A DNA stretch of 31,626 bases from Pyrinomonadaceae bacterium (GTDB lineage Bacteria; Acidobacteriota; Blastocatellia; Pyrinomonadales; Pyrinomonadaceae). Below are positions 27,141 through 31,626 of the stretch, one piece after another. The notes below the pieces were generated by a model. That model was not told where the DNA came from. It searched no databases and worked only from the letters and a program-made list of their open reading frames with translations. Within the stretch, counting starts at the first letter, position 1; every line of letters begins with the position of its first letter. The stretch covers positions 1-31,626 of the forward strand of contig JBJMGO010000135.1 in the NCBI GenBank assembly GCA_045807825.1. The letters run 5' to 3'. A program made the translations under genes and the position numbers.

Positions 27141-27165
27141 AAAAAGGGAGCGCTGCCGCTCCCTT
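27139..27165 (-). terminator. Rho-independent terminator between convergent genes
   Basis: AAGGGAGCG-CTGC-CGCTCCCTT 9-bp stem with an A-run on the left, which is the U-tract for the minus-strand ATPase gene. Confidence 0.85.
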
Positions 27166-27187
27166 CAAGATCTGCTTAGATCGCGCT

Positions 27188-28402
27188 CTAGCCTTCGCGC
27201 GGGTCTTCGCCCTTGGATTTACTCATTTGCGGAGCTGCTGACGCAGTCGGCAGGGGCAGCCCGACGGCATCCGCACTCACGAGCGGCTCATCTTGACCGT
27301 CCTTATTATTCCCTGAATCCGAGACGATCATCTTGCCGGACTGCTTGGTAAAGATCAGCAAGTCCTTCTCAGCGTCAAAGTCCACCGTTACGAGATCGCC
27401 GGTCTCGACCTGCTCGGTGGCGACAAGATTCGAAAGTGGATATACGAGAAATCTCTCGATCGACCGCTTGAGATGACGAGCACCGTACTTGAGATCGATG
27501 CCCTCGCCGAGGAGAAACTCCTTCGCCGGGGTCGTACATTCAAAGATAAATTTCGTGCCGGCGGACTCGGTGATGCGGTCCTGCACGGATCTGAGCTCGA
27601 TATCGAGGATCAGCCTGAGGTGATGCTCCTTAAGACTGCGGAAGACCACGACCTTATCAATGCGGTTCATGAACTCGGGCGAGAATTTACGCTTCGCCGC
27701 CTCGAGCGCCGTGCGATAGATCTTTGTGTCGATCTCGTTGTCGGCCTTTGCCTGGTCTTTAGCCGACGGCGCAAAGCCGATGCCGCCGGAGATCATCTCG
27801 GACATCTCGCGTGCACCGAGATTCGACGTCATGATGACGACCGTCTTAGAGAAATCGACGCGTCTGTTGTCGCCGAGCGTCAGCGTCGCCTTGTCCAATA
27901 TTCCAAGCAGCAGCTGCCAGAGCGAATCCGATGCCTTCTCGATCTCGTCGAACAAAACGAATGTCAGCTTTGTGTCGTCCGTGTGCGATTTGTCGAGATT
28001 CTCCTGCGTGAGCATCGGCGACGTCTCTCGGTGACCGAGGTATCCCGGAGGCGAGCCGATCAACTTTGCGATCTCGTGCGAATGCTGAAACTCGGCACAG
28101 TCGATCTTCACCACCGCGTAAGCGTCCCCAAACAGCACCTCAGCAGCGGCCTCGACGACACGTGTTTTTCCCGAGCCCGTAGGTCCGAGGAACAGCATCG
28201 TGCCGAGCGGACGCGACGGGTTATTCATGCTGGCCAGATAGATCTGGAAGAGCCCGCTCATCCTGCGCACGGCTCGTTCCTGGCCAACGATCAGGCCGGA
28301 AAGCCGATCTTCGAACTCGGCAGCCCGCGGACTCTTGCGATCGGGATCGAGCAAGATGCCCTGTTCTTCATTTCTTTCTTTTTTGGCCGCTTCCTGTTTC
28401 AT
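27188..28402 (-). CDS. Single-module Clp/Hsp100-like AAA+ ATPase (D2 ring only)
   Basis: IVGQERAV, RPLGTMLFLGPTGSGKT (Walker A), GSPPGYLG pore loop, VLFDEIEKA (Walker B), TSNLG, GGIGF, FSPEFMNRID and YGARHLKRSIE; GAGGTG SD. Confidence 0.92.
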   Translation of the reverse strand: MKQEAAKKERNEEQGILLDPDRKSPRAAEFEDRLSGLIVGQERAVRRMSGLFQIYLASMNNPSRPLGTMLFLGPTGSGKTRVVEAAAEVLFGDAYAVVKIDCAEFQHSHEIAKLIGSPPGYLGHRETSPMLTQENLDKSHTDDTKLTFVLFDEIEKASDSLWQLLLGILDKATLTLGDNRRVDFSKTVVIMTSNLGAREMSEMISGGIGFAPSAKDQAKADNEIDTKIYRTALEAAKRKFSPEFMNRIDKVVVFRSLKEHHLRLILDIELRSVQDRITESAGTKFIFECTTPAKEFLLGEGIDLKYGARHLKRSIERFLVYPLSNLVATEQVETGDLVTVDFDAEKDLLIFTKQSGKMIVSDSGNNKDGQDEPLVSADAVGLPLPTASAAPQMSKSKGEDPREG

Positions 28403-28656
28403 CTCTTCACCTCAAAGCGCGAATGCGATGGTGCCGCTCGCCTCAACTCTAAGAACGACTTTTCAATTTGGACTTGCTCAGACTGCTCAATGCAGTCACA
28501 GCAAAGATGAATCCGCTGGTATGTTCGTTGGCTGAACTTCGATTTGTGGAAGGCGCGGGTATGAAGGCCCGCTCCCGATGCCTTACATTTAGCACAGGTA
28601 GCGCGCGGCTTGCAACAATAAAATGAATAACTTAGCGATATTGGTGCCACTTGCAT
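28399..28656 (-). CDS. Possible small zinc-finger protein (CxxC-x7-H...HLCxxC) overlapping the ATPase start
   Basis: Open frame with CAKC-KASGAGL-H...IHL-CCDC; TGA overlaps the ATPase ATG (ATGA). No SD and weak codon bias. Confidence 0.3.
   Translation of the reverse strand: MQVAPISLSYSFYCCKPRATCAKCKASGAGLHTRAFHKSKFSQRTYQRIHLCCDCIEQSEQVQIEKSFLELRRAAPSHSRFEVKR
28634..28649 (-). promoter_or_regulatory. Putative sigma54 (-24/-12) promoter for the AAA ATPase
   Basis: The minus strand reads TGGCACCAATATCGCT, with GG-N10-GC spacing and a TGGCAC core. Confidence 0.55.
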
Positions 28657-28711
28657 GCAACCAAAATAGCAAGGCTGAGAGATCGAGAATGTCAGTCGTA
28701 ATACGAAGTCT

Positions 28712-30436
28712 TCACTGGTCAAATGGATACCACTGGCCCAATGCGGAGCTGTGCAGATCGCCGGCAAAATATGATCGAGGTATCGAGTCGACTCCGTGCG
28801 CCTTTAGCAGCGATGGAGCGTAAGGGTAAACACGAGCGTCGTCCGGCACATTCATCAGGTCAAGGAGCGTCGCAAAAAGATTGTGGTGGGCGGCTTTATA
28901 TGATGTGTCAGCGGCGGCCATCCGCTGATCGCTGCCGATCATAAAGAGAGGAACAACGGCCTCACTTCGCGTGGTCGAGCAGTGGGATACGACGGCGCCA
29001 TTCTCACCCAATGTTTGCCCGTGATCGGATGTGTAAACGATCACGGTCGCGTCAGGAATATCCGGGTCGACAAGCGGCGAGAAGAACGACTGCATGTTGT
29101 ACAGCAGCGCGTTGTCGTAGCTATTCACAAGCTGGTCGTGATCCACGTTGCCGTAAAAACCAGTGTCGTCAGCTCCGTACAGAGCGGGCTGCCAGACATT
29201 GGAGTCTTTTGGATAGGCGCGTTCATACGGCTTGTGAGTTCCGCGCTTGTTGATCCAGATAAAGTTGCCGGTGCTCGACGCGACGATCTGGCGCACACGC
29301 AATGCGATCTCGTGATCGACCTCGTAGAGAGGCAGAGCGGTGAAATTCTTGGCGTTGATCCACTCGTAATCATCTAGGTCTGAGGCCTTGCCGTTCCAGA
29401 CGGTGGAGAGCTGCCCGTCGAAGTAGTAGTTCTTGTAACCCGCAGCCTTTGCGTACTGAAAGATCGTCGGCAGCTTGTACACGTCGAAGCTCGTGTCCGG
29501 CAGATCCTTGAGACCGGTCAAGAGAAGATTGTTGGACTCTATGCTGCACGTTGCGCCTGAGGAGGCGATACCCCAGTTCTTGAGTTTGCCTTCGCGGCTC
29601 AACTTCGCGAGCAGGGGCGTTGTGTCCCGCGCGTAACCGTCGATGCCGAGGTGATCGCCGCGAACTGATTCATCGACGACGAAGATGATGTTATTCACCG
29701 GCGGCGTCGCAGTGCGATATGTGATCGGCGTTCGCGTCGACGTGAAGAACATACTCTTTGGCGGCTGATAGATGCTGCCGACCTTCCAGCTCATGGGGAA
29801 CTCGGTTGCCGTTCGATAAAACGCCTGCAGCGATGTCGTGTAGTAGAGGTTGTGCGAAAAGTACGCCGTTGCGGCCGAGAATCCGATCAGCACAACGAGA
29901 ACGGACGCCAGCACGAGCCATCCACGGCGCGCGGTCGGACGGCAGGGAATTAGAACAACAATAAAGGCAACGATCGGAATAAGCGCGAGCGGATTCGTGT
30001 ACAGTCGCACCGCATCGGCGAGGATCATTCCGTCCGCGGCAAACGCCGCGTTTTCGGCGTCGACGAGTTGTGTGAAGCGGTGAAAAACGCCTTCGTAGCC
30101 ATACTCAACTGCGATGGCGACGGCGAAGAGAATTATATAAAAAACACGATAACCCCAGCGGCTCGCCGCCGCCGCCCACACGAATGCAAAGCTGACGAGA
30201 AGGGCAGCGATCCCCAAAGCGCAGTACGCGACGAGGCGAGCGTATTCGTGCCTTTGGATGTGCTTTACGACGATCAGGTATTCGCCGCTGACGCCAAAGA
30301 CGATCGCTTCAACGGCGATCCAAATAACGAAGAAGATCAGTGCGAAAAAGAGCGGGCGTCTAAACCGGCGGAAGCGAGCGCCAGCGGGAGCCGACCCATT
30401 CGTCGGCTCCGCGCTGGGCAATGCCTCATCAGTCAT
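28712..30436 (-). CDS. Membrane-anchored phosphoethanolamine-transferase-like (EptA / alkaline phosphatase-sulfatase superfamily) enzyme
   Basis: About 4-5 N-terminal TM helices, then IFVVDESVRGDH, SGATCSIES, RGTHKPY, YDNALLY, YTSDHGQ and HHNLFATLLDL. Confidence 0.85.
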   Translation of the reverse strand: MTDEALPSAEPTNGSAPAGARFRRFRRPLFFALIFFVIWIAVEAIVFGVSGEYLIVVKHIQRHEYARLVAYCALGIAALLVSFAFVWAAAASRWGYRVFYIILFAVAIAVEYGYEGVFHRFTQLVDAENAAFAADGMILADAVRLYTNPLALIPIVAFIVVLIPCRPTARRGWLVLASVLVVLIGFSAATAYFSHNLYYTTSLQAFYRTATEFPMSWKVGSIYQPPKSMFFTSTRTPITYRTATPPVNNIIFVVDESVRGDHLGIDGYARDTTPLLAKLSREGKLKNWGIASSGATCSIESNNLLLTGLKDLPDTSFDVYKLPTIFQYAKAAGYKNYYFDGQLSTVWNGKASDLDDYEWINAKNFTALPLYEVDHEIALRVRQIVASSTGNFIWINKRGTHKPYERAYPKDSNVWQPALYGADDTGFYGNVDHDQLVNSYDNALLYNMQSFFSPLVDPDIPDATVIVYTSDHGQTLGENGAVVSHCSTTRSEAVVPLFMIGSDQRMAAADTSYKAAHHNLFATLLDLMNVPDDARVYPYAPSLLKAHGVDSIPRSYFAGDLHSSALGQWYPFDQ

Positions 30437-31626
30437 AGTACTCGAGGCCGAGGTGGGTGATCATTTCTTCGCCCTGTAGGTAGCGAAGCGTATTTTTGAG
30501 CTTCATCAATTGGATGAAAAGATCATGCTCGGGATACAACCCCTCAGCGTGCTGCGGGGCCTTAAAGTAGAACGACAGCCATTCCTGAATACCCTTCATC
30601 CCGGCCCGCTGCGCGAGATCCATAAACAGTGCCAGATCGAGCGCGAGCGGCGCGGCGAGGATCGAATCGCGGCAGAGAAAATCCACCTTGATCTGCATCT
30701 TGTAGCCGAGCCAGCCAAAGATGTCGATGTTGTCCCAGCCCTCTTTGTTGTCGCCACGGGGCGGATAGTAGTTGATGCGCACAACGTGGCTAAAATCTTT
30801 GTATAGCTCCGGGTAAACGTCGGGCTGCAGAATGTGCTCCAGAACCGAGAGCTTTGACTCTTCTTTAGTCTTAAAATTCTCCGGATCGTCCAGCACTTCA
30901 CCATCGCGGTTGCCGAGAATGTTGGTCGAGTACCAGCCTTCGAGGCCGATCATTCGCGCCTTGAAGCCGGGTGCGAGGATCGTCTTCATCAACGTCTGGC
31001 CGGTCTTAAAATCCTTACCGCAAATTGGGACCTGACTGTCCTCGGCGAGCTTGAGGAGAGCGGGAATGTCGGCTGTAAGATTCGGTGCTCCATTCGCAAA
31101 CGGCACGCGCGATTTGATGGCCGCGTATGCGTAGATCATCGACGGGGAGATCTTTGGATCGCTGTCGTAGAGGCCTTTTTCAAACGCCTCGATCGTCTGG
31201 TGTACCTCGCTCGCCTCGAGAAATATCTCGGTCGACGCCGCCCACACCATCACGAGCCGCGAGCAGCCGTTGTCCGACTTGAATTTGGCAATGTCCGCGA
31301 TGAGCTGCTCGGCAAGCTCCATCTTGTTCTTGCCTGTCTTGACGTTCTCACCATGAATGCGCTTGACGTAGTTCTGCTCAAAAACGGCAGGCATCGGCTT
31401 GAGCGACGAGAGCTGCTCGGAGACCTGGTTAAGCAGGTCCTTGTCGAGGACTCCGGCATTCATAGCCGCCTCAAACGCCGTGTCATGGAAGATATCCCAC
31501 GCGCCAAACACTATGTCGTCGAGGTCGGCAAGCGGGACAAAATCCTTGATCTTCGGCACGCGATTGTCGGTGCGCTTGCCGAGACGGATAGTGCCCATCT
31601 GCGTGAGGCTGCCGATCGGGTCCGAA
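30429..31626 (-). CDS. ino1: myo-inositol-1-phosphate synthase (5' end outside the window)
   Basis: FGAWDI, PFANGAP, GKDFKTGQT, NILGNRDG, GDNKEGWD and CRDSILAAPL. The frame stays open to the window edge (SDPIGSLTQMG). Confidence 0.95.
   Translation of the reverse strand, partial: SDPIGSLTQMGTIRLGKRTDNRVPKIKDFVPLADLDDIVFGAWDIFHDTAFEAAMNAGVLDKDLLNQVSEQLSSLKPMPAVFEQNYVKRIHGENVKTGKNKMELAEQLIADIAKFKSDNGCSRLVMVWAASTEIFLEASEVHQTIEAFEKGLYDSDPKISPSMIYAYAAIKSRVPFANGAPNLTADIPALLKLAEDSQVPICGKDFKTGQTLMKTILAPGFKARMIGLEGWYSTNILGNRDGEVLDDPENFKTKEESKLSVLEHILQPDVYPELYKDFSHVVRINYYPPRGDNKEGWDNIDIFGWLGYKMQIKVDFLCRDSILAAPLALDLALFMDLAQRAGMKGIQEWLSFYFKAPQHAEGLYPEHDLFIQLMKLKNTLRYLQGEEMITHLGLEYYD

Follow-up and report, generated by a model that had tools for sequence, protein, structure and literature searches.

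When the gene of a membrane-anchored transferase overlaps the end of a gene for myo-inositol-1-phosphate synthase (MIPS), does the enzyme serve the inositol-lipid branch of metabolism, or has it come to lie there by the history of the locus? This question is raised by the end of the window, i.e. the whole stretch of DNA that was analysed, 31,626 nucleotides long, which is one whole contig (C135) of a Pyrinomonadaceae genome from a soil metagenome (2.83 Mb, 396 contigs, 85% complete). Two open reading frames (ORFs) lie there on the minus strand, namely ino1 (30429..31598, with the frame open to 31626) and a gene encoding a protein of 574 aa (Table 1). The stop of ino1 and the start of the second gene share 8 nt, ATGACTGA, which were read directly from the sequence and are located exactly where the initial annotation had placed them. 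The 574-aa protein fits best among the enzymes of the EptA/MCR/LtaS kind, as an accessory transferase of phospholipid head groups that faces the periplasm, and the arrangement of the genes suggests that it is co-transcribed with, and translationally coupled to, the core gene ino1. We estimate the probability of a functional tie between the transferase and the inositol-lipid branch at about 0.55. This tie is favoured because the coupling has persisted while the enzyme diverged deeply, has survived changes of both flanks and recurs after separate acquisitions. What is established is a divergent clade of a known kind of enzyme with a new, conserved genomic partner.

Table 1. Positions of the ino1-transferase pair, of the domains and residues of the transferase and of the neighbouring features in the window.
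Feature	Coordinates	Strand	Basis or remark
EptA/MCR-like phospho-head-group transferase, 574 aa (P0001)	28712..30436	-	PF00884 1.8e-31, profile, model
N-terminal membrane domain, residues 1-220 (predicted)	29777..30436	-	model helices, hydropathy, charge
Periplasmic alkaline-phosphatase-fold catalytic domain, residues 245-574 (predicted)	28715..29704	-	Pfam, profile, fold
T296-C297-S298 motif	29543..29551	-	hidden Markov model (HMM) alignment, codons checked
D255-E256	29669..29674	-	E256 aligns with MCR-1 metal ligand E246
H401, D471-H472, H485	28982..29236	-	alignment to MCR-1, codons checked
ino1 (myo-inositol-1-phosphate synthase)	30429..31626	-	3' 398 codons; first 40 codons on contig C317 (L003)
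8-nt ino1/transferase overlap, ATGACTGA	30429..30436	-	read from sequence
Small Cys-rich ORF	28399..28656	-	in the 310-nt transferase-Clp spacer; context, not part of the pair
ClpB-D2-like AAA+ ATPase, 404 aa	27188..28402	-	PF07724, PF10431
Terminator-like hairpin, 10-bp stem and T-run	27143..27166	-	sole minus-strand one between ino1 and the end of the Clp-like gene

Membrane-anchored enzymes of the alkaline-phosphatase fold move phosphoethanolamine (pEtN) or phosphoglycerol from membrane lipids onto the cell envelope, and PptA moves phosphocholine. Polymyxin resistance (EptA, MCR), the synthesis of lipoteichoic acid and the modification of cellulose are based on such reactions. A profile built from 60 homologues of the 574-aa protein and compared with the PDB matches full-length MCR-1 (9nww_B, 8e-25, residues 30-527) and EptA (5fgn, 1e-19). 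The AlphaFold (AF2) model, with a mean predicted local distance difference test score (pLDDT) of 92.5 and a predicted template-modelling score (pTM) of 0.90, comprises about five transmembrane helices, together with short periplasmic ones and a bridging helix, and a domain with the alkaline-phosphatase fold. The cytoplasmic N-terminus is rich in arginine (RFRRFRR), and this feature, together with the five helices, predicts that the catalytic domain is periplasmic. In a Foldseek search with the model, full-length MCR-1 (9nww_B) and EptA (5fgn) rank first, at 16-18% identity, and the membrane domain aligns over its length with the membrane domains of both. Among the Swiss-Prot models, the order is EptA, MCR-1/2, YhbX, EptC/CptA, EptB and OpgE, followed by LtaS-like proteins (ranks 17-19). 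The initial annotation had called the protein a membrane-anchored EptA-like enzyme, and as far as fold and chemistry are concerned this label is correct.

The curated families are more distant. The matches to the NCBIfam models of phosphoethanolamine transferases are weak (the best, NF028537, reaches 83.5 bits where the cut-off is 500; the equivalog models all score far below theirs), and no Pfam family, EptA_B_N (PF08019) included, was found in residues 1-245 at E<=0.01. With 14-18% identity to known enzymes, the protein is a distant branch. Its catalytic residues are nevertheless readily aligned: E256, H401, D471-H472 and H485 correspond to E246, H395, D465-H466 and H478 in MCR-1, and E256, H401, D471, H472 and H485 are invariant in the 60 homologues. 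A difference is found at the position of the MCR-1 nucleophile T285, which is occupied by a serine, S298, and not by a threonine. S298 is at least 90% conserved, both within the clade linked to ino1 (described below) and beyond it. In the model, it is located at the N-terminus of a helix (298-307) that follows a strand (285-292); by this location and its alignment with T285, S298 is the candidate nucleophile. Serine is chemically equivalent to threonine and acts as nucleophile in BcsG and alkaline phosphatase. By analogy with the related enzymes, we infer that the reaction is the transfer of a phospholipid head group. The GC content of the gene, overall and at third codon positions (GC3), is that of the genome, and a foreign composition was rejected on this basis.

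PF00884 is the sulfatase family, soluble sulfatases are present lower in the structural lists, and enzymes with the alkaline-phosphatase fold frequently act as hydrolases in the absence of an acceptor. These points would suit a membrane-anchored hydrolase (phosphodiesterase, phosphatase or sulfatase), which might for example trim phosphatidylinositol phosphate (PIP) or scavenge external inositol phosphates, or a non-catalytic lipid binder similar to PbgA/YejM. However, the formylglycine motif of sulfatases, C/S-x-P-x-R, is absent: the segment reads S-G-A-T-C-S-I-E-S-N-N, with no proline at +2 and no arginine at +4. The protein thus lacks the hallmark of a formylglycine sulfatase in the strict sense. 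The T-C-S-I-E-S motif found instead speaks against the hydrolase reading, and so do the full-length architecture and the best matches, which are those of lipid head-group transferases. The conservation of all catalytic residues argues against a PbgA-like pseudoenzyme. A PIP phosphatase is difficult to reconcile with a catalytic domain predicted to be periplasmic, as PIP is made on the cytoplasmic side, and relatives that have ino1 and PIP synthase but lack the transferase would be left with no PIP phosphatase. We regard a hydrolase or a non-catalytic lipid binder as very improbable.

With regard to the upstream gene, its identification as ino1 is well supported by PF07994 (8e-91) and PF01658 (8e-34), but the gene that the initial annotation had described is incomplete in the window, where it is cut by the contig end. 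The best solved relative of its product is the inositol-3-phosphate synthase of PDB entry 7nwr (E=8e-151), which we take to be a Bacteroides enzyme. The ATG at 31598 falls at position 47 of the Pfam profile, and the NAD-binding start is absent from the window. The last 63 nt (31564-31626) are identical to the end of another contig, C317 (L003, 3764-3826), and joining the two contigs by this identity completes ino1; the contigs are thus probably neighbours in the genome. The joined ORF opens at GGAGGAAATAATG and encodes a MIPS of 438 aa, with the N-terminus MAEKGVDIAPAEGKLGVLLVGLGAVSTT and a GLGAVSTT Rossmann start. This protein has the length of its relatives, aligns with them over residues 1-438 at 82-88% identity, and comprises both the NAD-binding Rossmann domain and the catalytic domain, i.e. 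it is a full-length MIPS. The 63-nt overlap between the contigs resembles the k-mer breaks that assemblers leave where coverage is low. Contigs from public runs that were aligned with the end of C317 are pieces of 143-271 nt at 2-4x depth, and only soil DNA runs contain the sequence.

The initial annotation had also supposed that genes upstream of ino1 could supply a CDP-alcohol phosphatidyltransferase and a phosphatase, and this is not supported by the joined contig. Upstream of ino1, C317 carries a divergent exodeoxyribonuclease III gene (xth), a FitA/PIN toxin-antitoxin pair, a second xth and a lactonase of the SGL family, and no lipid genes were found there; the idea that an inositol-lipid cluster continues upstream was therefore rejected. 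No CDP-alcohol phosphatidyltransferase is present beside ino1, nor in any searched locus that holds a homologue of the transferase. As a separate observation, the two xth genes of C317 (279 and 260 aa; L003, 1091-3499) flank the FitA-like/PIN pair, so that xth is seemingly duplicated around the toxin-antitoxin module.

We checked the homologues of the transferase for an adjacent ino1 at 58 loci from GTDB species genomes, 15 from the family sample and 4 from metagenome contigs. At 15 loci, ino1 is located directly upstream on the same strand, the hosts being Pyrinomonadaceae or unclassified Blastocatellia/Acidobacteriota; several further loci are cut at a contig end, yet have the Clp-like gene downstream. 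When 65 proteins were placed in a maximum-likelihood tree, the linked copies grouped within one clade of 18, with a Shimodaira-Hasegawa-like approximate likelihood-ratio test (SH-aLRT) support of 93. Fifteen members of this clade are linked, one is cut by a contig end, which hides its context, and two (L028 and L089) are unlinked. In the other clades, the context is known for 43 rows, and not one of these is linked to ino1. The linkage whose conservation the initial annotation had left to be examined in relatives is therefore kept in 15 of the 18 members of the clade, with changing flanks, although the number of independent events is small.

In the window, the junction reads GAG TAC TAT GAC TGA, with the ATG of the transferase inside, embedded in the conserved C-terminal codons of ino1, Y-Y-D-stop (TAT GAy TGA). 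The 8-nt overlap TATGAyTGA is present in 9 of the 15 linked loci; one locus has an overlap of 17 nt, and the remaining five have gaps of 40-125 nt. The flanks of the pair vary on both sides, with GH57/DUF4912, FG-GAP proteins or Fic upstream and the Clp-like ATPase, a penicillin-binding protein or other genes downstream. Within the clade, identity to the transferase of the window is 41-51%, compared with 82-88% for ino1. The ratio of nonsynonymous to synonymous substitution rates (dN/dS) of the transferase is 0.08-0.15 in relatives, and the gene evolves about 4 times faster than ino1; these dN/dS values indicate a working gene under purifying selection. Ten residues are conserved specifically in the linked clade (N196, P214, W217, Y218, G220, Y320, K350, E376, S407 and S450), and they do not name the head group. 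In one Blastocatellia locus (L060, 3643-6645), ino1 is broken at residue 394 and the transferase near residue 410, which may reflect decay of the pair or indel errors of long reads.

The distribution of the two genes differs markedly. The taxonomy of homologues was taken from the names on database matches and from GTDB records. The closest homologues of the transferase are from Pyrinomonadaceae and other Blastocatellia (Acidobacteriota); distant ones are from Chloroflexota and, rarely, from Bacteroidota, Myxococcota, Planctomycetota and others. Matches at 1e-40 are present in 3 of 301 genomes of the phylum. ino1, by comparison, is present in 139 of these 301 genomes (a count that includes the unpublished genome G024), in 16/16 sampled genomes of the family and in 9/9 sampled from other families of the class. 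In Chloroflexota, MIPS is near-universal (228/251 sampled genomes), so that its presence in 13 of the 15 genomes that have the transferase family is uninformative and no enrichment can be seen; this count was made with PF01658, as PF07994 misses a short type of MIPS (0/5, with a Corynebacterium control missed too). All seven same-genus genomes of the phylum sample carry, at another site, a further MIPS-like gene that is shorter than ino1 (about 395 aa) and 44-50% identical to it, for example at G241:C19:190033-191019, G181:C5:174216-175178 and G113:C7:729490-730485; none was found in the present 85%-complete genome.

Several observations, given in this paragraph and in the next two, weigh against a functional tie. 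Most of them would be explained if the protein were an ordinary phosphoethanolamine or phosphocholine transferase acting on lipid A/lipopolysaccharide (LPS) or another envelope glycan, with a place behind ino1 that reflects history and not function. The gene would have landed once in a permissive slot between conserved genes and would then have been inherited, lost and passed on by recombination anchored in ino1. The transferase is accessory: at E<=1e-30, a match is found in 16 of 251 genomes of the family, and mostly to an unlinked paralogue (the unpublished genome G514 is included in this count, and its locus L086 duplicates the public record behind L030; beyond the two counts named, no result depends on G024 or G514). 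Among the same-genus genomes searched, nine have no match and a tenth has the unlinked paralogue only. In five same-genus genomes, ino1 is followed by the Clp-like gene without a transferase, and no remnant of one was found in these five ino1-Clp gaps; ino1 thus has a role that is independent of the transferase. The slot behind ino1 is itself variable. It holds a 172-aa C39-like papain-fold cysteine peptidase (PF03412, 1e-6) in L010 (5866-6384), L011 and L012, and it is empty in L009 and L013. A slot that is empty or is occupied by the C39-like peptidase or by PPK2 fits an insertion hot spot.

Signs of movement are also found. On the ino1 tree, genomes that have the transferase are interspersed among genomes that lack it, a pattern that requires at least 3-5 gains or losses. 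Between L031 and L080, the ino1 proteins are 98% identical, with a synonymous divergence (dS) of 0.34, whereas the transferases are 68% identical, with a dS of 1.66. The gene orders differ as well, being ino1-transferase-[ino1 fragment]-PPK2 in L031 and ino1-PPK2-transferase in L080. The fragment in L031 (5086-5331) is a 246-nt duplicate of the 3' end of ino1 (residues 358-438 and the stop), 92% identical to the intact gene, and looks like the footprint expected from a single crossover through ino1 homology. These differences indicate that the transferase moves among relatives and that ino1 may be the recombination anchor that returns it to the same place. Moreover, the start ATG lies within conserved codons of ino1, so ino1 itself offers the start site and a gene placed there gains a coupled start free. 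Unrelated neighbours (Clp-like gene, Cys/Met enzyme, arsR, tlyA) are order-conserved in the family too, which makes conserved order weak evidence in this family. All linked cases are from one bacterial family, so that the linkage may be a single event, and two members of the clade are not beside ino1 at all. Adjacency is the only link of the transferase to inositol.

The known relatives and the lipids of the organism point in the same direction. The nearest characterised relatives are all phosphoethanolamine transferases, and the characterised structural neighbours all use phosphatidylethanolamine (PE) or phosphatidylglycerol (PG). The genome has Pss and Psd and hence also makes PE. LpxC is present in 27 of 31 relatives, which indicates that lipid A is made in the lineage and is available as a possible acceptor. 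LpxC and DgkA (PF01219) were not found in the present 85%-complete genome, and the absence of LpxC is probably due to a gap in the contigs. In the other clades, the transferase has neighbours such as an ABC-2 transporter, a PTPS_related membrane protein, sugar epimerases and glycosyltransferases, and no inositol gene was found beside them in the loci searched; these neighbourhoods suggest envelope glycan work. We also observed that the paralogous, unlinked Pyrinomonadaceae clade (L048, L052, L055, L065 and L091-L099) keeps the ABC-2 transporter (ATPase and permease), the PTPS_related membrane protein, a tetratricopeptide repeat (TPR) protein and PriA. In Pyrinomonas, PE and phosphatidylcholine (PC) only have been reported (PMC12816986).

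In contrast, an ordinary transferase placed there by history does not readily explain why an identical 8-nt overlap is kept between copies that are only 41-46% identical, why the pair survives a change of both flanks, or why separate acquisitions, such as the different alleles of L031 and L080, again lie beside ino1. It also sits uneasily with the large distance from the curated phosphoethanolamine models (83.5 bits against 500) and with the missing PF08019. We regard such a transferase as the main alternative, although less likely than not, and retain the functional tie to the inositol-lipid branch as the preferred reading.

The genome has the capacity for an inositol phospholipid, as the initial annotation had presupposed. 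Besides ino1, it carries three CDP-alcohol phosphatidyltransferases, namely a PgsA-like gene, PssA and a gene of 213 aa on contig C281. The best model for the latter is the phosphatidylinositol-phosphate synthase NF045883, with 152 bits against a cut-off of 170. This PIP-synthase-like gene is located between greA and accC, away from the ino1 contig, and is found in 30 of 31 relatives. As both it and ino1 are core to the class, phosphatidylinositol (PI) is plausible as a lipid of this organism, and PE likewise. Two genera of the class, Arenimicrobium and Brevitalea, have been reported to contain PI (PMC12816986). The donor could thus be PI, PE or PC, and the acceptor could be LPS.

Based on the analogy with EptA and MCR-1, the following mechanism can be proposed. 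The five-helix membrane domain would bring a phospholipid from the inner membrane, where it lies in the outer leaflet, to the metal centre (E256, D471 and H472, with H401 and H485). S298 would attack the phosphodiester, diacylglycerol would leave, and a covalent phospho-alcohol enzyme would form. An acceptor in the envelope, which may be lipid A/LPS, another glycan or a glycolipid, would then receive the phospho-alcohol on a hydroxyl or phosphate group. Two options would connect this cycle to ino1. In our leading guess, phosphoinositol would be taken from PI, and each transfer would consume inositol phosphate that ino1 must replace. In the second option, a head group such as phosphoethanolamine would be placed on an inositol-containing glycolipid. 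Taken as a claim of its own, PI as the donor is doubtful. It is likewise unlikely, in our estimate, that the protein is the first PI-donor transferase of the alkaline-phosphatase superfamily, attaching myo-inositol phosphate (+242 Da) to lipid A/LPS or to a different polymer of the envelope in soil Acidobacteria, with ino1 resupplying the inositol phosphate.

If the PI chemistry were true, the family would gain a new head group in its repertoire, bacterial PI would gain a second role besides membrane building, and a new surface decoration would be present in Pyrinomonadaceae, which are abundant but barely cultured bacteria of dry soils. If the protein were a plain phosphoethanolamine transferase instead, the locus would be a worked example of an overlapping pair that is kept by descent and by recombination in an anchor gene rather than by shared function.

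The genes downstream of the pair bear on the transcript. No terminator-like site was found between the transferase and the Clp-like gene, and the single hairpin after the Clp-like gene suggests one transcript comprising ino1, the transferase, the small ORF and the Clp-like gene. For the longer frame that includes the small ORF (28399-28767), no Pfam or NCBIfam match was obtained. The ATPase, which comprises the ClpB D2 part only, is a conserved downstream neighbour of ino1 across the genus, in relatives without the transferase.

Among known systems, the phosphoethanolamine transferases of lipid A, EptA (Neisseria, 5FGN) and MCR-1 (9NWW), are the most similar to the 574-aa protein. They exhibit the same five-helix membrane domain and periplasmic alkaline-phosphatase-fold domain, they are the best matches by both sequence profile and fold, and their metal and catalytic residues align with those found here. 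The differences are the low identity (16-18%), the presence of Ser298 in place of Thr285 of MCR-1, the absence of PF08019 and scores that come nowhere near the NCBIfam cut-offs. A further difference is the coupling to ino1, as none is reported for EptA or MCR in the literature searched. OpgE, EptB, EptC/CptA and YhbX of E. coli/Salmonella, which act on glucans, 3-deoxy-D-manno-oct-2-ulosonic acid (Kdo) or heptose, exhibit the same architecture and rank just below EptA, at 14-18% identity. Many homologues are named 'glucan phosphoethanolaminetransferase' by the Joint Genome Institute (JGI), which is an automatic annotation and not evidence. Chloroflexota, where the broader family is also present, are not known to have LPS; if they lack it, the acceptor across the family need not be LPS. 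LtaS, OpgB and GacH follow the same reaction logic with PG as donor, which shows that the head group is not fixed in the superfamily. They are weaker matches than the phosphoethanolamine enzymes, and their membrane domain and linker differ.

In the literature searched, we found nothing that joins phosphoinositol with EptA-type enzymes, or inositol phosphate with substituents of LPS or teichoic acids. In eukaryotes, the ethanolamine-phosphate transferases of the glycosylphosphatidylinositol (GPI) pathway (PIG-N/O/G, Mcd4) belong to the alkaline-phosphatase superfamily, have many more membrane helices and transfer phosphoethanolamine from PE to a glycolipid with an inositol anchor. These enzymes provide a model for an inositol lipid as acceptor, and are absent among the structural and sequence matches listed. 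The inositol-lipid cluster of Bacteroides thetaiotaomicron comprises MIPS, PIP synthase and PIP phosphatase, and the paper describing it mentions no sulfatase-fold or alkaline-phosphatase-fold partner (PMC9246714). The present genome has a similar ino1 and a PIP-synthase-like gene too; in contrast to B. thetaiotaomicron, the genes do not form a cluster here, the PIP synthase being on another contig.

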